A stretch of DNA of 33,479 nucleotides from a virus. Lineage: Duplodnaviria; Heunggongvirae; Uroviricota; Caudoviricetes. The notes under the pieces were generated by a model. That model did no database searches. It was not told where the DNA came from and was given only the letters and a program-made list of their open reading frames with translations. The translations under genes were made by a program, and so were the position numbers. The stretch lies in the IMG/VR virus record IMGVR_UViG_2778261246_000010, one strand, 5' to 3'. Shown here piece by piece: positions 1 through 20,919 of this stretch; position 1 is the stretch's first letter; every line of letters starts with the position of its first letter.

Positions 1-1248
1 ATGGCACTGAATATTCCATTCAGAAATGCGTACTATCGTTTTGCATCCAGTTACTCATTTCTCTTTTTTATTTCCTGGTCGCTGTGGTGGTCGTTATACG
101 CTATTTGGCTGAAAGGACATCTAGGGTTGACAGGGACGGAATTAGGTACACTTTATTCGGTCAACCAGTTTACCAGCATTCTATTTATGATGTTCTACGG
201 CATCGTTCAGGATAAACTCGGTCTGAAGAAACCGCTCATCTGGTGTATGAGTTTCATCCTGGTCTTGACCGGACCGTTTATGATTTACGTTTATGAACCG
301 TTACTGCAAAGCAATTTTTCTGTAGGTCTAATTCTGGGGGCGCTATTTTTTGGCTTGGGGTATCTGGCGGGATGCGGTTTGCTTGATAGCTTCACCGAAA
401 AAATGGCGCGAAATTTTCATTTCGAATATGGAACAGCGCGCGCCTGGGGATCTTTTGGCTATGCTATTGGCGCGTTCTTTGCCGGCATATTTTTTAGTAT
501 CAGTCCCCATATCAACTTCTGGTTGGTCTCGCTATTTGGCGCTGTATTTATGATGATCAACATGCGTTTTAAAGATAAGGATCACCAGTGCGTAGCGGCA
601 GATGCGGGAGGGGTAAAAAAAGAGGATTTTATCGCAGTTTTCAAGGATCGAAACTTCTGGGTTTTCGTCATATTTATTGTGGGGACGTGGTCTTTCTATA
701 ACATTTTTGATCAACAACTTTTTCCTGTCTTTTATGCAGGTTTATTCGAATCACACGATGTAGGAACGCGCCTGTATGGTTATCTCAACTCATTCCAGGT
801 GGTACTCGAAGCGCTGTGCATGGCGATTATTCCTTTCTTTGTGAATCGGGTAGGGCCAAAAAATGCATTACTTATCGGAGTTGTGATTATGGCGTTGCGT
901 ATCCTTTCCTGCGCGCTGTTCGTTAACCCCTGGATTATTTCATTAGTGAAGTTGTTACATGCCATTGAGGTTCCACTTTGTGTCATATCCGTCTTCAAAT
1001 ACAGCGTGGCAAACTTTGATAAGCGCCTGTCGTCGACGATCTTTCTGATTGGTTTTCAAATTGCCAGTTCGCTTGGGATTGTGCTGCTTTCAACGCCGAC
1101 TGGGATACTCTTTGACCACGCAGGCTACCAGACAGTTTTCTTCGCAATTTCGGGTATTGTCTGCCTGATGTTGCTATTTGGCATTTTCTTCTTGAGTAAA
1201 AAACGCGAGCAAATAGTTATGGAAACGCCTGTACCTTCAGCAATATAG
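1..1248 (+). CDS. cscB: LacY-family MFS oligosaccharide:H+ symporter, 415 aa; resembles sucrose permease CscB (symbol tentative)
   Basis: Full-length ORF with many hydrophobic segments; homologous to LacY over its length but clearly not LacY itself; 415 aa matches the length I recall for CscB. Host-like, outside the phage gene set. Confidence 0.8.
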   Translation: MALNIPFRNAYYRFASSYSFLFFISWSLWWSLYAIWLKGHLGLTGTELGTLYSVNQFTSILFMMFYGIVQDKLGLKKPLIWCMSFILVLTGPFMIYVYEPLLQSNFSVGLILGALFFGLGYLAGCGLLDSFTEKMARNFHFEYGTARAWGSFGYAIGAFFAGIFFSISPHINFWLVSLFGAVFMMINMRFKDKDHQCVAADAGGVKKEDFIAVFKDRNFWVFVIFIVGTWSFYNIFDQQLFPVFYAGLFESHDVGTRLYGYLNSFQVVLEALCMAIIPFFVNRVGPKNALLIGVVIMALRILSCALFVNPWIISLVKLLHAIEVPLCVISVFKYSVANFDKRLSSTIFLIGFQIASSLGIVLLSTPTGILFDHAGYQTVFFAISGIVCLMLLFGIFFLSKKREQIVMETPVPSAI

Positions 1249-1777
1249 ACGTAAACTTTTTCCGGTTGTTGTCGATAGCTCTATATCCCTCAACCGGAAA
1301 ATAATAATAGTAAAATGCTTAGCCCTGCTAATAATCGCCTAATCCAAACGCCTCATTCATGTTCTGGTACAGTCGCTCAAATGTACTTCAGATGCGCGGT
1401 TCGCTGATTTCCAGGACATTGTCGTCATTCAGTGACCTGTCCCGTGTATCACGGTCCTGCGAATTCATCAAGGAATGCATTGCGGAGTGAAGTATCGAGT
1501 CACGCCATATTTCGCTATCAGGATTCTGTGTGATGGTTACATCGCCCGGCCCAGGGCTGTTTAGTCATCAGCGCTTTCTGACAGTGCTGAGATTTCAACC
1601 TGTTGCAGTAAAAATGAGTAGATATAAGGCAAGTGTGCTGCCAAACCCATCTTTTACGGGGTGAAGGTAGATTTCGTTTGAAGGGTATCTGGTGTCCCCT
1701 GCAGACATCTACTTGAGGCGGCAGGGGATTGATTGGAATGGTGTTTTTTAGATGTGAAAAATATTTTACCCGCTATT

Positions 1778-1978
1778 TTACCCATTGGCGCGGCTTAAGA
1801 GCTTATTTTTGAATTCACAATGGTCACGATATAACCATCTTGCTCGTCCGTGGATAACTTTGGCTTTAGGCAGGTCGCCGGACTTAATCCGGTCATAGAT
1901 GAAGGTTTTACCAAAGCCAGTATCGGCCATGATGAATTTCAAATCAACCAGTGAATCAGGCTGTAGTTCGTGTTGCAT
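1778..1978 (-). CDS. Excisionase-like AlpA/Xis-family HTH protein
   Basis: 66-aa ORF with the AlpA/Xis pattern (TG.GK..IYDRIKSGDLPK....G.ARWL); sits at the distal end of the leftward early operon where lambdoid xis lies. Confidence 0.6.
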   Translation of the reverse strand: MQHELQPDSLVDLKFIMADTGFGKTFIYDRIKSGDLPKAKVIHGRARWLYRDHCEFKNKLLSRANG

Positions 1979-2100
1979 GAGTACTATCTCCGAATATGGA
2001 ATCGAACCTGCAAATCAGGCAATAAAAAGCCGCATTGATGCAGCAATGGTAGGTCTGGATATCTTGAGAAATGAACAGGCCTCATCGAGTGTGAGGCGGG

Positions 2101-3344: not shown

Positions 3345-4097
3345 TCACACTTCGAATGCCAGTTGATGGGTAAAGACGTCCCGTTCAGCGTTGTAATTAA
3401 GTGAACTGGCACTGTTGAATGATTCAATGCGTTCCATAAGAACTTGCGTACGGGTTTCTTTACTTGCGGGAGCATATGGCGAACCTACCCAGGATTTGTC
3501 GATGCCTATATTTCTTGCGACGTTCGTGCTGTCTGCAGACGAAAGCGGTACATGAGTAAAAATGTCTTTATTTAACATCCGTAACCCATGAATCTTGGTG
3601 ATTGGGTAGCCGTACTGATCTACAACATGACGTATAAGATCGCGTAGTTTAGCCCGACACGCTCTCGGTCGTTTTGCATCGTATTCCCCCATCGAGCCGA
3701 TGCAGACGCGGGGAAACTCATGGCACAGACGAATAAATCGCTCATCTGGTTCGTTCATGTGCCACACCGGAGCACCAATAAATTTACCGTGAGGCCATGC
3801 CGCAATCAGGGCGTCATTCTCTTCACTGGTTCCGCCGATAACATCCGGGATAACCGCGAATGAGAAACGAGGGTGATTACCCCAGCGTTCAACAAATCTG
3901 TAATATTCATTCCAGTCTACGGCCTTGTTTTTTGTCCAGAATGTGAATGCACCATTATCAAGAGCAAATGATTGGGTGACTTCGGAAGCCAGATCAATCT
4001 GAGCTGGATTAGCAAAACTGATGAATGCGTGTCTGCCTTTCCAGGCTTTCAACGCACAGGTATCGGGAGTTATTGGACCACCGTGAAAATGAATCAT
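3345..4097 (-). CDS. Hypothetical protein (250 aa), function unknown; possibly enzymatic
   Basis: Long ORF, same strand as exo; its ATG overlaps the stop of the small upstream ORF (ATGA). No lambda counterpart of this size in this position. Confidence 0.6.
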   Translation of the reverse strand: MIHFHGGPITPDTCALKAWKGRHAFISFANPAQIDLASEVTQSFALDNGAFTFWTKNKAVDWNEYYRFVERWGNHPRFSFAVIPDVIGGTSEENDALIAAWPHGKFIGAPVWHMNEPDERFIRLCHEFPRVCIGSMGEYDAKRPRACRAKLRDLIRHVVDQYGYPITKIHGLRMLNKDIFTHVPLSSADSTNVARNIGIDKSWVGSPYAPASKETRTQVLMERIESFNSASSLNYNAERDVFTHQLAFEV

Positions 4098-4252
4098 ACA
4101 CTCTCCCGTTTATTATTTATCTCCTCAGCCAGCCGCTGTGCTTTCAGGGGATTTCTGATAACAGAAAGGCCGGGAAATACCCAGCCTCGCTTTGTAATGG
4201 AGTAGACGAAAGTGATCGCGCCTACCCGGATATTATCGCGAGGATGCGTCAT
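4094..4252 (-). CDS. Small exo-proximal protein (52 aa; orf60a-like position)
   Basis: Hand-translated [55 protein letters not shown]; ATGA overlaps with the exo stop and with the next gene start. Below the ORF-track size cutoff. Confidence 0.4.
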
Positions 4253-4929
4253 CGCCATTGCTCCCCAAATACAAAACCAATTTCAGCCAGTGCCTCGTCC
4301 ATTTTTTCGATGAACTCCGGCACCATCTCGTCAAAACTCGCCATGTAATTTTCATCCCGCTCAACCACGACATAATGCAGTCCTTCACGCTTCATACGCG
4401 GGTCATAGTTGGCAAAGTACCAGGCATCTTTTCGTGTCACCCACATGCTGTACTGCACCTGGGCCATGTAAGCCGACTTTATGGCCTCGAAACCACCGAG
4501 CCGGAACTTCATGAAATCCCGGGAGGTAAACGGGCATTTCAGCTCAAGGCCATTGCCGTCACTGCATAAACCATCGGGAGAGCAGGCGGTGCGCATACTT
4601 TCGTCGCGATAGATGATCGGGGATTCAGTAACATTCACGCCGGAAGTGAATTCAAACAGAGTTCTGGCGTCGTTCTCGTACTGTTTTCCCCAGGCCAGCG
4701 CCTTAGCATTAACTTCCGGAGCCACACCGGTGCAAACCTCAGCCAGCAGGGTGTGGAAGTAGGACATTTTCATGTCAGGCCACTTCTTTCCTGAGCGGGG
4801 CTTTGCTATCACGTTGTGAACTTCTGAAGCGGTGATGACGCCGAGCCGTAATTTGTGCCACGCATCATCTCCCTGCTCGATAGCTCTCACGTCGATCCCG
4901 GTACGCTGCAGGATAATGTCCGGTGTCAT
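4249..4929 (-). CDS. exo: Lambda-type exonuclease (Red-alpha)
   Basis: 226-aa translation matches my recollection of lambda Exo almost residue for residue. Confidence 0.95.
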
Positions 4930-16737: not shown

Positions 16738-16855
16738 TAACTGAGCCGTAGCCACTGGCTATCCTGAACTCATCAGTGATAGTTATGCCGCGGCCTTCTT
16801 TTTTCCCCTTCCCAATATAAGAACTACGCAATCCGTTACTTGCGGAGGCGTTGCT

Positions 16856-17071
16856 ATGAAATCAATGGACAAAATCTCTACTGGCATTGCCTACGGAACA
16901 TCCGCTGGTAGTGCGGGATACTGGTTTTTACAGTGGTTGGATCAGGTCAGTCCGTCACAGTGGGCTGCAATTGGTGTGCTGGGAAGTCTAGTTCTGGGCT
17001 TTTTGACTTATCTGACAAATCTGTACTTCAAAATCAGAGAAGACAGAAGAAAGGCTGCGAGAGGTGAATAA
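16856..17071 (+). CDS. S: Class II holin / pinholin (phage 21 S-type) with dual-start motif
   Basis: 71-aa, two TM segments, MKSM dual-start motif; matches my recollection of the S21 pinholin. Confidence 0.9.
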
Positions 17072-17568
17072 TGCCTCCGTCATTACGAAAAGCTGTTGCA
17101 GCTGCTATTGGTGGCGGGGCTATTGCTATAGCATCAGTGTTAATCACTGGTCCAGGTGGTAACGATGGTCTGGAAGGTGTCAGCTACATACCATACAAAG
17201 ATATCGTTGGCGTATGGACTGTATGTCACGGGCATACAGGAAAAGACATCATTCCCGGTAAAACGTATACCGAAGCAGAATGCAAAGCCCTCCTGAATAA
17301 AGACCTTGCCACGGTAGCCAGACAAATTAACCCGTACATCAAAGTCGATATACCGGAAACAACGCGCGGCGCTCTTTACTCATTCGTTTACAACGTGGGT
17401 GCTGGCAATTTCAGAACATCGACGCTTCTGCGCAAAATCAACCAGGGCGATATCAAAGGCGCATGTGATCAGCTACGTCGCTGGACATACGCTGGCGGTA
17501 AGCAATGGAAAGGTCTGATGACTCGTCGTGAGATTGAGCGTGAAGTCTGTTTGTGGGGGCAACAATGA
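17071..17568 (+). CDS. R: SAR endolysin (phage 21 R-type lysozyme)
   Basis: Gly/Ala-rich N-terminal signal-anchor-release segment followed by a lysozyme domain; start overlaps the holin stop. Confidence 0.9.
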
Positions 17569-17660
17569 GCATGATTTGCTTTTTCATGGCAGCGTTGCTC
17601 GCATTCAATGGCAACGATGCGTGGCCGTGGTTTCTGGCCGTTGGAGTGTTGATGTCATGA
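17565..17660 (+). CDS. Possible 31-aa hydrophobic peptide between endolysin and the Rz-like start
   Basis: Hand-translated [31 protein letters not shown]; ATGA overlaps at both ends. Confidence 0.3.
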
Positions 17661-17806
17661 GTCGGTTAACCGCGATTATCTCCGCTCTGGTTATCTGCAT
17701 CATCGTCTGCCTGGCGTGTGGCGGCGCATTTTCTGGTGTCGTTCATTGTCGGCGTACTGGGCGCAGAGGTTCTGGCATCCTGGCTGGTAAAGCATACAGG
17801 GTTTGA
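17657..17806 (+). CDS. Rz-like i-spanin N-terminal fragment (49 aa), diverging after the TM segment
   Basis: [19 protein letters not shown] matches the lambda Rz N-terminus, then the frame diverges and stops; no embedded Rz1-like lipoprotein found. Confidence 0.35.
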   Translation: MSRLTAIISALVICIIVCLACGGAFSGVVHCRRTGRRGSGILAGKAYRV

Positions 17807-17943
17807 CGGTGCTCCCGTCGACGCACTGTGTGCAGTGCTGGTGTCAGTGGTGTCGGTGAAGATTCTCTCGTTCATCCACCAGCAGGATATTGCATCGCTG
17901 GTGTCCGGTGTGTTCTCCCGCCAGCGAGGCGGAGGAGGCGGTA

Positions 17944-18219
17944 ATGTTAAGTAACCTTCCCGGATTGCTGAATGTGGCGTTATGCACGGTTATCGTGCTG
18001 ACGCTCTTTTTTTATCGTCGTCGCGATTCCAGGCATAAACCGCTGATGTCATGGCTGGCCTGGCTGCTGATGCTGCTGTATGCCTTTGCGCCTCTCAGCT
18101 ATCTGTGTGGTTGCCCGTTAGCAACGGGCTGGCTGGATGTGTTTTTTAATCTGCTGTTCTGCGTGCTGGTGATACGCGCACGCGGGAACGTCACAAGAAT
18201 CTTTCCATTGTTGAGGTGA
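17944..18219 (+). CDS. Small membrane protein (91 aa, about 3 TM segments); holin-like candidate
   Basis: Strong GGAGGAGG Shine-Dalgarno 7 nt upstream; three hydrophobic stretches; immediately upstream of the M15 peptidase gene. Confidence 0.55.
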   Translation: MLSNLPGLLNVALCTVIVLTLFFYRRRDSRHKPLMSWLAWLLMLLYAFAPLSYLCGCPLATGWLDVFFNLLFCVLVIRARGNVTRIFPLLR

Positions 18220-18221
18220 AT

Positions 18222-18599
18222 ATGTCGGGTAAATTCAGATTCAGCCGCCGGAGCGAGAAAAATCTGGAAGGCGTCAAACCACAGCTGGTTGCTGTAGTTC
18301 GCCGCGCCCTTGAACTGTCGGAGGTTGATTTCGGTATTACGGAAGGCCTGCGCACGAAAGAACGCCAGAAACAGCTGGTTGCAGAAGGCAAGAGCCAGAC
18401 CATGAACAGCCGCCACCTGACCGGTGATGCGGTGGATGTTGTGGCCTGGGTTGGCAGCCAGGTGTCATGGGACTGGCCTCTGTACGAGAAAATCGCGCAG
18501 GCATTTAAGCAGGCTGCCGCAGAGCTGGGAACTGCCATCGAATGGGGCGGGGACTGGAAAACGCTGAAAGACGGACCTCACTTTCAGTTGAAGCGTTGA
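18222..18599 (+). CDS. Peptidase M15-family zinc peptidase (VanY-like; candidate second endolysin)
   Basis: SxHxxGxAxD motif present as SRHLTGDAVD plus a downstream His; start 2 nt after the preceding stop. Confidence 0.75.
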   Translation: MSGKFRFSRRSEKNLEGVKPQLVAVVRRALELSEVDFGITEGLRTKERQKQLVAEGKSQTMNSRHLTGDAVDVVAWVGSQVSWDWPLYEKIAQAFKQAAAELGTAIEWGGDWKTLKDGPHFQLKR

Positions 18600-18613
18600 T
18601 AATCAGGTGGGTT

Positions 18614-18796
18614 ATGAGCAGAAAACACTGGACACACAGAATGCCGCGAACGACGGCGAAATGGGCACTGGTAGCGATACTGGTGCCTTTTTTATTGGCG
18701 GGATGCGTCAGCCTGGATAGGGCGCGTCAGCTTTTGGATGCTGCCTCTCAGGTCTGTGAAATTGTCAATGGTGTCCGACAGTGTATGCATAACTGA
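18614..18796 (+). CDS. Small lipoprotein (60-aa precursor, lipobox LLAGC)
   Basis: AGGTGGG Shine-Dalgarno; signal peptide MSRKHWTHRMPRTTAKWALVAILVPFLLAG then Cys; about 30-aa mature part with 3 further Cys; not proline-rich like Rz1. Confidence 0.6.
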   Translation: MSRKHWTHRMPRTTAKWALVAILVPFLLAGCVSLDRARQLLDAASQVCEIVNGVRQCMHN

Positions 18797-18957: not shown

Positions 18958-19179
18958 ATGAAGAGATTACTGGTAACCGTAAAGCCCTTTAACGGAACGA
19001 TTCCATTCAGGGTTTTGCAGCGTGGACGTGTTCTGGTTAAGGATATCTTCAGTGGTAAATGCACGGAATGTTATTCCCGGACATATGAAGTGGATGCCAC
19101 GGATGAAGAAATTTCTGTTGAATGTGATCTTAACGCGAATATGGCGGAGATTGTAACAGCCACGTTGTTGCCTGTTTAA
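18958..19179 (+). CDS. Hypothetical late-region protein (73 aa)
   Basis: GGAGGGGAT Shine-Dalgarno directly upstream of the ATG; own upstream terminator. Confidence 0.5.
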   Translation: MKRLLVTVKPFNGTIPFRVLQRGRVLVKDIFSGKCTECYSRTYEVDATDEEISVECDLNANMAEIVTATLLPV

Positions 19180-19222
19180 TGAATGACATAGAATGTCTCT
19201 GGGTACCCAAAAGGAGAACACT

Positions 19223-19438
19223 ATGTTTGTAGAAAATAACCTGAAGGCTGATCCTGATAATCAGGGATGGGTTCTGGGTTGGGCTGTTGTACGTGATAAA
19301 CCGTGGCATCTGGTCGGTATTTATGCAACGGAGGATGGCGCAAAGTCTAAACGCTCTGAATTGAATGGGGAGTATGAAGTTCGTTATGGTTCCCATCGTT
19401 TAGGTAGTGATGATTTTATGTCTGTAGGACTTAGCTAA
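19223..19438 (+). CDS. Hypothetical late-region protein (71 aa)
   Basis: AAAGGAGAACACT-ATG; followed by a strong terminator. Confidence 0.5.
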   Translation: MFVENNLKADPDNQGWVLGWAVVRDKPWHLVGIYATEDGAKSKRSELNGEYEVRYGSHRLGSDDFMSVGLS

Positions 19439-19460
19439 CTGGCTGTGATGCCTGTTTGTA

Positions 19461-19485
19461 GCCCCGCAAATGCGGGGCTTTTTAT
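19461..19485 (+). terminator. Intrinsic terminator
   Basis: GCCCCGCA-aa-TGCGGGGC followed by TTTTTAT. Confidence 0.7.
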
Positions 19486-19499
19486 ATCTGGAGACGATA

Positions 19500-19796
19500 A
19501 TGGAAAAAACAGAAAACAAACCGGTTGTAATTGGTGCTGTGGCTGTTCCGTTTAAGTTTGAACTTTCACAACTGGTGGAAATGTGCATCAGTGATGAATG
19601 GGGTGAGGTTAAAGCCCGCGCTCAGTATACGGATGGCGAAAACCAGTACTTACTCCACTACAAAGCTGCTGATGGTCGCGCCACGACGGAGTGGTTTGGT
19701 GAGTCAATGCTGGAAGCAACAGAAGATGATCGCCATCCTGGCTGTCCGGTATTTGCCGGTATGAAATTACCGGAAGGCACGGTCGTTACTGAGTAA
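19500..19796 (+). CDS. Hypothetical late-region protein (98 aa)
   Basis: GGAGACG Shine-Dalgarno; ORF follows the terminator. Confidence 0.55.
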   Translation: MEKTENKPVVIGAVAVPFKFELSQLVEMCISDEWGEVKARAQYTDGENQYLLHYKAADGRATTEWFGESMLEATEDDRHPGCPVFAGMKLPEGTVVTE

Positions 19797-20215: not shown

Positions 20216-20391
20216 AAGGCTAGTTTTTGCATTTCCATGGCGGCGGCAGCATGTTCGGTAATTTATTGATAATTAAAAGTTATTTCTCTTTTCGCCTGTA
20301 CAATATTTTTTTCTCCCTGTCATTAGACTAGTTTGCAATTAATTGAAATATATAAATAAACCCGATTTTCACCTGCCAGATGGAGTTGCTT

Positions 20392-20919
20392 ATGTCAAAT
20401 GTGAGCGGGATCGGTGATGCTTATTACTGGAGTGTTTTTAAAATCGCCGAGGCCTTTGGGCTTCACCGGGACACAGTAAAAAAACGGCTCCTCGCGGCCA
20501 ACACTCCTGTGGCAGCGACTGTCAGGGGGAACCCCGTTTACGCCCTGCAGCATGTCGGGCCTGCCCTGTTTAGTGTGAAGCATGAGGCAGCAGACTCTGT
20601 TCATGATCCATCCCGTATGGAGCCGAAAGAGAGAAAGGACTGGTACCAGTCTGAAAATGAAAGGATCAAGCTGGAAAAGGAGCAGCGAAAACTCATCCCC
20701 GTTGATGAAGTAGTCATCGTCTATTCGTCCATGAGAAAGGCTGTCGTCCAGGTTCTGGAGACAATTCCGGATGTTCTTGAGCGCGATTGCGCCCTGACTC
20801 CTCAGGCCGTCGGCGTTGTACAGCAGGCCATTGATGACCTGCGATACACTCTTCAGGAAAAATCCTACGAGGCTTGTGCTGCTGAATTAATTCCTGATGA
20901 GGAAGGAGAGAGTCTCTAG
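20392..20919 (+). CDS. Terminase small subunit (Nu1-like)
   Basis: N-terminal HTH-like region and ELIP C-terminal tail resembling Nu1; directly upstream of the large terminase. Start could also be the ATG at 20380. Confidence 0.65.
   Translation: MSNVSGIGDAYYWSVFKIAEAFGLHRDTVKKRLLAANTPVAATVRGNPVYALQHVGPALFSVKHEAADSVHDPSRMEPKERKDWYQSENERIKLEKEQRKLIPVDEVVIVYSSMRKAVVQVLETIPDVLERDCALTPQAVGVVQQAIDDLRYTLQEKSYEACAAELIPDEEGESL

Follow-up and report, generated by a model that had tools for sequence, protein, structure and literature searches.

A probable microhomology junction between two lambdoid lysis cassettes, with a candidate lipoprotein for the outer-membrane step of lysis

The stretch analyzed here (the window) is IMG/VR virus record IMGVR_UViG_2778261246_000010, 33,479 nucleotides of DNA from a virus of the Caudoviricetes, and the region in question is its lysis interval (17565-18796), which follows a phage-21-type pinholin and endolysin and contains genes for a protein with 3 transmembrane (TM) segments, an M15 peptidase, and a 60-amino-acid (aa) lipoprotein. 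Alignment to both parental types points to this interval being, very probably, the place where an illegitimate recombination, mediated by microhomology, joined two lambdoid prophages whose lysis cassettes are not homologous. An earlier note on this DNA had described it as an Rz/Rz1 slot whose spanin genes were replaced; its open reading frames (ORFs), motifs, and coordinates are all present as it gave them, but the notion of replacement is misleading, as Rz appears to have been cut after codon 19 by a recombination that also cut the first holin gene of a phiP27-type cassette. The lipoprotein is favored as the terminal gene of that phiP27-type cassette, serving the outer-membrane step of lysis without a phage-encoded inner-membrane partner, a reading to which we give a probability of roughly 0.45.

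Two lysis cassettes joined at a 5-bp microhomology

From position 16800 to about 17713, the DNA is 95-98% identical to that of phage 21, phi458, and SfI. The sequence that starts at about 17706 instead shares 92-94% identity with the phiP27 lysis cassette and with many Escherichia coli prophages, such as that of strain PEC41. GC content climbs from about 0.48 to 0.56-0.59 across 17600-18600. A three-way alignment places the crossover in the pentanucleotide GCCTG, which is common to Rz21 and the phiP27 holin gene L28: the former reads TCTGCCTG followed by TCATGG, and the latter TCAGCCTG followed by GCGTGT. Between the Rz remnant (Rz') and the gene for the 3-TM protein lies a fragment of a PF16931 holin gene, which identifies the region as a junction of one cassette with another. 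The same stretch in E. coli RM10740 was independently annotated by PGAP as "putative holin, incomplete, missing N-terminus".

What remains of Rz is short. The ORF at 17657-17806 matches Rz21 over its first 20 codons only (tblastn, 85% identity, E 1.6e-6), the phrog_13 profile matches its residues 1-21, and whole-window tblastn gave no other match to Rz or Rz1 anywhere in the window. The earlier statement that only the N-terminus of Rz is left therefore holds, in that this 20-codon match is the sole trace of the gene, but it overlooked the holin fragment at about 17714-17954. The suggestion of a second holin-endolysin module was borne out, since the DNA from 17709 on is 92% identical to the phiP27 cassette.

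Both parental arrangements were found intact in E. coli. Strain WAT carries the left type, in the order S21, R, 31-aa ORF, and an Rz of 153 aa, and PEC41 carries the right type, in the order holin, holin, M15 (with the identical accession, WP_089515642.1), and lipoprotein. In the event that we propose, a left parent resembling the WAT prophage or phage 21 would have given pR'-tRNA-S21-R21, the 31-aa moron ORF, and Rz codons 1-19, and a right parent of the phiP27 type, like the prophage of PEC41, would have given its cassette, starting at about codon 50 of the first holin gene. The same event would have removed Rz1 entirely and Rz from codon 20 on.

The whole arrangement was present in 1 of 5,426 complete E. 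coli genomes, that of RM10740, a strain from a feral pig, to which the window is 99.994% identical apart from an element of the IS3 insertion sequence family. Two short metagenome contigs from ENA, found via the 78-aa truncated-holin ORF, run colinearly through the junction with identities of 99.4% and 99.8%, and one of them differs at 8 of 1,295 positions. Together with RM10740, these contigs establish the hybrid as a real, rare, circulating recombinant, and an assembly artefact as the origin of the junction is ruled out by the complete genome and the two independent contigs. None of 50,697 phage records contained the junction, the exact junction strings were absent from the IMG/VR and JGI metagenomes, and an exact look-up of the 49-aa Rz' fusion ORF matched nothing on record.

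By itself, the hybrid is ordinary lambdoid mosaicism. Juxtaposition of the two cassette types recurs: independently of the present case, a class II holin gene that resembles S21 and has no lysozyme gene next to it lies about 0.7 kb upstream of a complete phiP27-type cassette in phiSTEC1575-Stx2k (884-1099) and in one related IMG/VR locus (L086, 3010-3223). The value of the present case is as a cleanly resolved 5-bp microhomology crossover that deleted Rz/Rz1.

A conserved lipoprotein family at the end of the cassette

The product of the last gene of the interval is encoded by the only phage ORF with a lipobox in the window. Like an o-spanin (the outer-membrane subunit of a spanin), it is a small lipoprotein with a lipobox and an outer-membrane sorting residue, G30 and C31 of the lipobox being invariant and the residue at +2 being Val rather than Asp. 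The mature protein would consist of 30 aa with net charge 0 (3 K/R, 3 D/E) and conserved cysteines at +17 and +26. This agrees with the pattern of the family as a whole, which comprises enterobacterial lipoproteins of about 60 aa with a lipidated cysteine, 16 residues, and a C-x8/9-C pair, and in which Val, Thr, Ser, Ala, or Gly, but in no case Asp, stands at +2. The Lol +2 rule is established for outer-membrane sorting, and with a residue other than Asp in this position, sorting of the family to the outer membrane is predicted.

The gene is on the late strand and has a Shine-Dalgarno sequence, and 14 nt separate it from the stop codon of the endolysin gene; its product is 82% identical to that of an unannotated homolog in phiP27 (20679-20861). 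All 81 copies of the gene were intact, and their 49 alleles gave a dN/dS of 0.18, with variation dominated by third codon positions. By these sequence measures, the gene is real and under purifying selection. The family is small, with 107 clusters at 90% identity. Across 1.84 billion representatives, searched exhaustively with a profile, E<1e-10 was reached by only 13 clusters (50% identity), and no link to a larger family emerged, the matches being relatives of about 60 aa and low-complexity noise. No Pfam, NCBIfam, or PADLOC family matched the lipoprotein. A terminator-like hairpin of 11 pairs with a T-run (18663-18688) was also seen inside the sequence encoding its signal peptide.

The genomic context of the lipoprotein was compared across 80 related IMG/VR loci, 72 of which included upstream sequence, with 31 M15 loci from other species as comparison. 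Without exception (72/72), the lipoprotein gene follows holin, holin, and endolysin genes: M15 with the same 14-nt gap as in the window in 38 loci, M15 plus inserted DNA in 9, and in the other 25 a GH108 endolysin, in some cases accompanied by one or two small TM peptides. A divergent lipoprotein subfamily (about 10 loci) is encoded directly after the endolysin in four architectures that bring together two holin systems and three endolysin types (PF16931+PF05449/M15, PF05106/M15, PF05106/CHAP, and PF16931+PF05449/GH108).

In about 21 of the 31 loci from other species, a homologous M15 gene is followed by genes for a protein resembling an i-spanin (the inner-membrane subunit) and an embedded, overlapping, or separate lipoprotein. 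Among them are loci of Serratia PL17, Mixta, and Edaphovirga, in which the two holin families are also the same as here. The flanking genes allow the two outcomes to be aligned: Serratia marcescens UMH3 has the order holin, M15, i-/o-spanin, and a 65-aa gene, and two other loci (L126 and L127) have the order holin, M15, lipoprotein, and a 72-aa gene, the product of which is 59% identical to the 65-aa protein of UMH3. With matching flanks, the lipoprotein and the spanin pair occupy the same slot, and in the loci examined they were never seen together intact. Phage GER2 has S, R, and Rz in the canonical arrangement, and its homolog of the lipoprotein gene (4001-4168) is interrupted by three in-frame stops; this pseudogene is located between a reverse-strand gene and the terminase gene.

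From these comparisons we infer that the lipoprotein is probably a component of the lysis cassette, serving a step that is independent of the type of holin and endolysin, and most simply the one at the outer membrane. The idea of a non-canonical spanin substitute, also raised by the earlier note, is plausible for the lipoprotein, on the strength of comparative position only.

Two M15 loci, from the Enterobacteriaceae UBA5654 (L116) and Chimaeribacter arupi (L122), have a holin and M15 followed by genes for large proteins that do not look phage-derived and are not spanins. The downstream ORF in the former appears, from a reading of its sequence, to have a Tc/Rhs-toxin-like N-terminus, and the arrangement is reminiscent of holin/endolysin-dependent toxin secretion.

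Search for a spanin partner

The earlier note had named an intact two-component spanin in the interval as one finding that would speak against it. None was found there, nor was any other spanin detected in the window, by whole-window tblastn, a lipobox scan, or a generic detector of i-/o-spanin pairs, and no i-spanin-like ORF lies near a lipoprotein gene in the window. An i-spanin is a type II inner-membrane protein whose periplasmic domain, beyond an N-terminal TM segment, has at least about 70 residues; the Rz remnant consists of codons 1-19 and an out-of-frame tail. Candidate spanins nested within the M15, L28, or L29 genes were also considered and rejected, as no ORF in an alternative frame has a TM segment or a lipobox that could be used.

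A two-component spanin would further be expected to have a conserved partner for the lipoprotein, and there was none in the 80 related loci or the approximately 10 loci of the divergent subfamily. The pair detector reported no pairs in the 80 loci, compared to pairs in 12 of the 31 control loci and in phage 21 and GER2. Its sensitivity is moderate, with 12 of 31 controls recovered compared to about 21 by eye, and it missed WAT, so that the zero in 80 loci is supportive rather than proof.

For phiP27, a "separated" two-component spanin has been published, with an i-spanin of 64 aa (20348-20542) and an o-spanin of 51 aa (20706-20861) (Kongari et al. 2018, PMC6139136). Their combined periplasmic length of 62 residues was the shortest in that census, and both were family singletons (PMC6139136). 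The published o-spanin is the homolog of the lipoprotein in the window. The published i-spanin ORF (4049-4243 in locus coordinates) has a TTG start, is antisense to a 90-aa ORF (4033-4305), and lies inside an insert of about 470 bp that is absent from the window and from most relatives; its product had no tblastn match in any of the 80 related loci. These features indicate that the i-spanin half of the published call is probably spurious.

Other types of outer-membrane lysis protein were compared as well. A unimolecular spanin of the T1 gp11 type does not describe the lipoprotein, which has a lipobox and a 30-aa mature part without a hydrophobic segment, and neither does a disruptin of the phiKT gp28 type, given its net charge of 0 and its lipoprotein signal peptide.

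Gene content of the hybrid cassette

The features of the lysis region are listed in Table 1. Its left side corresponds to a pinholin/SAR-endolysin pair of the phage 21 type, with an S21-family dual start and a lysozyme with an N-terminal signal-anchor-release (SAR) segment, and its DNA is 95.5% identical to phage 21 over S21/R21. In RM10740, the R21 protein was named rrrD by PGAP (WP_029399658.1), and the same accession is found in WAT beside an intact Rz.

Table 1. Features of the lysis region, in coordinates of the window
Feature	Position	Strand	Evidence and state
S21-type pinholin/antipinholin	16856..17071	+	PF04971 8.6e-36; dual start MKSM; intact; left-parent context
R21-type SAR endolysin (phage lysozyme)	17071..17568	+	PF00959 5.8e-46; hydrophobic N-terminal SAR segment, residues 9-25; intact
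31-aa hydrophobic ORF	17565..17660	+	~91 bp inserted between R and Rz, by comparison with phage 21 (three-way alignment)
Rz (i-spanin) remnant	17657..17716	+	Codons 1-19 kept; ORF continues out of frame through holin DNA, stop 17806
Probable crossover point, GCCTG	17709..17713		5-bp microhomology common to Rz21 and phiP27 L28 (three-way alignment)
3' part of first phiP27-type holin gene (PF16931, L28 family), pseudogene	17714..17954	+	Profile positions 54-121 of 121
3-TM holin-family protein, 91 aa (phiP27 L29 family)	17944..18219	+	PF05449 2.2e-21, profile positions 2-79 of 80; phrog_217 1.6e-37; intact
M15 (M15_4/M15C) L-alanyl-D-glutamate-type endolysin, cytoplasmic	18222..18599	+	PF13539 3e-12; phrog_465 2.9e-75; intact
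60-aa lipoprotein (Lpp)	18614..18796	+	Lipobox LLAG/C; phrog_7528 7.6e-35, function unknown

The 31-aa ORF is joined by ATGA overlaps to the R stop at one end and the Rz' start at the other. The insertion that contains it accompanies an intact Rz in 60 of the 5,426 E. coli genomes, where it is never annotated, and it is not present in phage 21 or phi458. A weak match to phrog_14810 (E 0.0033) was its sole family match. NCBIfam and PADLOC scans returned no families for this ORF, for the L29 and M15 proteins, or for the products of three ORFs downstream of the lipoprotein gene.

On the right side, the L28-type holin, which also matches phrog_198, is short of about 49 of its 130 codons (63 of 144 by the phiP27 annotation), and full-length copies of this PF16931 holin were found in all 72 related loci. 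An ORF at 17718-17954 was considered as an independent small gene and rejected: no Shine-Dalgarno sequence precedes its possible GTG start at 17718, and what it encodes is the C-terminal half of the holin. Of the holin pair PF16931 and PF05449, only the latter is intact. Three TM segments are predicted in this 91-aa protein, and a strong Shine-Dalgarno sequence (GGAGGAGG) precedes its ATG by 5 nt.

The L28 homolog has been linked to lysis experimentally: deletion of the 130-aa protein abolished enrofloxacin-induced release of Stx2e, a Shiga toxin (Stx), and complementation restored it (PMC12571312). The holin gene with experimental support as a lysis factor is the one that is truncated in the hybrid. 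In a set of 279 Stx phages, the Rz pham was present in 277, and the two exceptions were Stx2e phages with a metallopeptidase endolysin (PMC8136144). Lysis genes arranged in two blocks were also reported for some Stx phages (PMC8136144).

The M15 protein carries the motif SRHLTGDAVD, which fits SxHxxGxAxD, and H65, D72, and H120 are invariant in the alignment, in agreement with the His, Asp, and His zinc ligands of the M15C/M15_4 family. Profile searches, which the earlier note had proposed as a check, placed it with the ChiX and T5 endolysins, with PDB matches to Serratia ChiX (5opz, 4.4e-43), 8q2g (1.9e-42), 23ri, and the T5 endolysin (2mxz, 8e-24). No TM segment or export signal was predicted in it, so that it needs a hole-forming holin.

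Downstream of the lipoprotein, 18958-19796 contains three small conserved ORFs (73, 71, and 98 aa) with matches to phrog_2571, phrog_4280, and a phiP27 L33 homolog, which occur in variable combinations at this site in relatives. A strong GC-rich terminator-like hairpin (19460-19479) follows the 71-aa ORF, which ends at 19438. Among database entries, PP818812.1, "Actinobacillus phage vB_Apl-pPE4", has about 88% DNA identity to this E. coli prophage lysis region, and its host assignment looks doubtful.

Proposed working and alternative explanations

All genes of the lysis region are on the late strand, and no promoter-like site was found within it; they would form part of one late operon. The S21 pinholin would depolarize the inner membrane, and this would release and activate the SAR lysozyme R21, which would then degrade the cell wall. 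The M15 enzyme is probably redundant cargo, as it has no export signal and the main holin is truncated, unless the 3-TM protein alone can release it. The outer-membrane step, normally carried out by Rz/Rz1, would be either missing or supplied by the lipoprotein, and if the latter acts alone, the recombinant would have kept a complete three-step cassette. Mutants of lambda Rz/Rz1 demonstrate that lack of this step is tolerated in the laboratory unless divalent cations stabilize the outer membrane. A broader proposition is that the entire family of about 60-aa lipoproteins, with its lipidated cysteine, 16-residue helix, and C-x8-C loop, consists of stand-alone outer-membrane lysis effectors that replace Rz/Rz1 and need no phage-encoded partner; this we consider possible but doubtful.

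Several observations weigh against the lipoprotein serving the outer-membrane step by itself. With 30 residues, the mature protein cannot bridge the periplasm; it has no proline, unlike the proline-rich Rz1, and is not cationic like the phiKT disruptin. None of the definitions of a two-component spanin, a unimolecular spanin, or a disruptin fits it, and no mechanism suggests itself. AlphaFold2, run on the alignment of the family, returned one long helix at low confidence (pLDDT 67). The pseudogene in GER2, beside a canonical cassette, is a single case. Variable DNA separates the endolysin and lipoprotein genes in phiP27, pPE4, phiSTEC1575-Stx2k, and about a third of the related loci. In GH108-type relatives and phiSTEC1575-Stx2k, this space encodes one or two small single-TM ORFs of 37-60 aa (5826-5999 in L027; 5662-5844 and 5862-5996 in L056; 5710-5992 in L010; 3326-3499 in phiSTEC1575-Stx2k). 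These peptides had no Pfam match, and neither the window nor the 38 M15-adjacent loci encode them; they may act as accessory factors in lysis or as partners for the lipoprotein. Apart from the lipoprotein, the copy of the prophage in RM10740 is decayed in ways that speak against its being functional. An IS3-family element (NZ_CP043821.1, 2727170-2728377) sits at the border of S21 and R21, with window bases 17055-17069 on both of its sides, the window being the IS-free form. In addition, an internal stop makes ral a pseudogene, and the annotation has no integrase between torI, an excisionase-like gene at the prophage end (window 1-2000), and host cscB, about 530 bp away. The prophage may be unable to excise, and with S21 separated from R21, ral lost, and no integrase annotated, the whole region may be inert.

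This last point leads to an alternative in which the prophage is decaying and the whole second module (17706-18796) is carried along without function, its genes being intact only because the event was recent. The rarity of the hybrid in genomes, phage records, and metagenomes would fit such a history, as would the decay in RM10740 and the truncation of the first holin of the module. Yet L29, M15, and the lipoprotein are full length, the M15 accession is the same as in the intact PEC41 cassette, and the junction was recovered from at least three independent samples with sequence differences in one, meaning that the arrangement has persisted and diverged. On balance, we regard this explanation as rather improbable; it concerns function only, and does not contradict the structural explanation of the interval. 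Somewhat less probable still is that the lipoprotein is a moron unrelated to lysis, acting in exclusion or lysogen fitness like Cor, Llp, or Bor, in which case the hybrid would have no outer-membrane step. The interval between lysis and packaging genes is rich in morons, with Bor located there in phage 21, variable inserts lie between endolysin and lipoprotein in several phages, and known exclusion lipoproteins such as Llp of T5 are likewise small and have disulfides. The earlier note had proposed a Cor/Llp-like exclusion lipoprotein, and this proposal found no support: the protein has no match among Pfam, NCBIfam, or PADLOC families, and the gene travels with lysis genes rather than with receptor-binding genes. 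It is linked to lysis cassettes across different packaging and virion modules, whereas a receptor-specific exclusion factor would be expected to track tail genes; it lies on the late strand, close behind the endolysin, with its own Shine-Dalgarno sequence and without a promoter-like site upstream; and it and i-/o-spanin pairs exclude one another at that slot.

Of the explanations weighed here, we find least credible that the lipoprotein is the o-spanin of a genuine two-component spanin with an unrecognized partner, be it a small TM peptide, a holin-family protein, or a host protein. It is backed by the listing of phiP27 as a "separated" spanin by Kongari et al. (PMC6139136), by the single-TM ORFs directly upstream of the lipoprotein in some relatives, and by a weak match to phrog_6073, "Rz-like spanin" (E 0.014). 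The i-spanin of that listing, however, is the antisense, TTG-initiated ORF of an insert that the window does not contain, with matches in none of the 80 loci; the small TM peptides are missing from the window and from the 38 loci that, like it, have M15 directly before the lipoprotein; and the result of the pair detector is opposed to that in the controls. Neither holin can be an obligate partner, since the lipoprotein occurs with two unrelated holin systems. A role for the lipoprotein as the terminal outer-membrane-step gene of a phiP27-type cassette remains the reading that we favor.

Significance

In many prophages of E. coli, Citrobacter, and Salmonella, Stx2e phages among them, the spanin slot appears to be occupied by a partner-less outer-membrane lipoprotein with a mature part of 30 residues, a modestly novel lead from comparative sequence analysis. 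If the role proposed for it is correct, two-component spanins, unimolecular spanins, and disruptins would be joined by another class of lysis protein that disrupts the outer membrane. The phiP27-type Stx2e phages and hundreds of E. coli prophages would rely on it, and it would complete the hybrid cassette as pinholin, SAR endolysin, and lipoprotein. The question bears on how phages without recognizable spanins breach the outer membrane. The phiP27-type cassette also controls the release of Stx2e from porcine Shiga toxin-producing E. coli (STEC).

Comparison with known lysis systems

The left side of the region is closest to phage 21, with which the window shares intact S21 and R21, the upstream tRNA-Asn and tRNA-Thr, the Q region, and Rz codons 1-19. 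It differs from phage 21 in that Rz is cut after codon 19, Rz1 is gone, an extra 31-aa ORF is present, and Bor and the rest of the right end are replaced. The right side resembles the cassette of the Stx2e phage phiP27, with 92% DNA identity and the same order of PF16931 holin, PF05449 holin, M15, and lipoprotein, but without the first 49 or so codons of the L28 homolog and without the insert of about 470 bp between endolysin and lipoprotein.

The M15 protein matches ChiX of the S. marcescens ChiWXYZ system over its full length (5opz, 4.4e-43), and the order of holin followed by M15 is shared as well. In that system, which mediates chitinase secretion, a holin, the L-Ala-D-Glu endopeptidase ChiX, and the spanin-like ChiY and ChiZ act together. 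Loci of the Serratia type (such as L105) have an i-/o-spanin-like pair after the endopeptidase, where the window has the single 60-aa lipoprotein.

With lambda Rz1 and T1 gp11, the lipoprotein shares a lipobox signal peptide, an outer-membrane sorting residue, and its position as the last gene of the lysis cassette. It is unlike Rz1 in having no i-spanin partner, unlike gp11 in having no C-terminal TM domain, and unlike the phiKT gp28 disruptin in being lipidated and not cationic. What would set it apart from all three is a predicted helical, proline-free mature domain of 30 aa that carries a C-x8-C pair.

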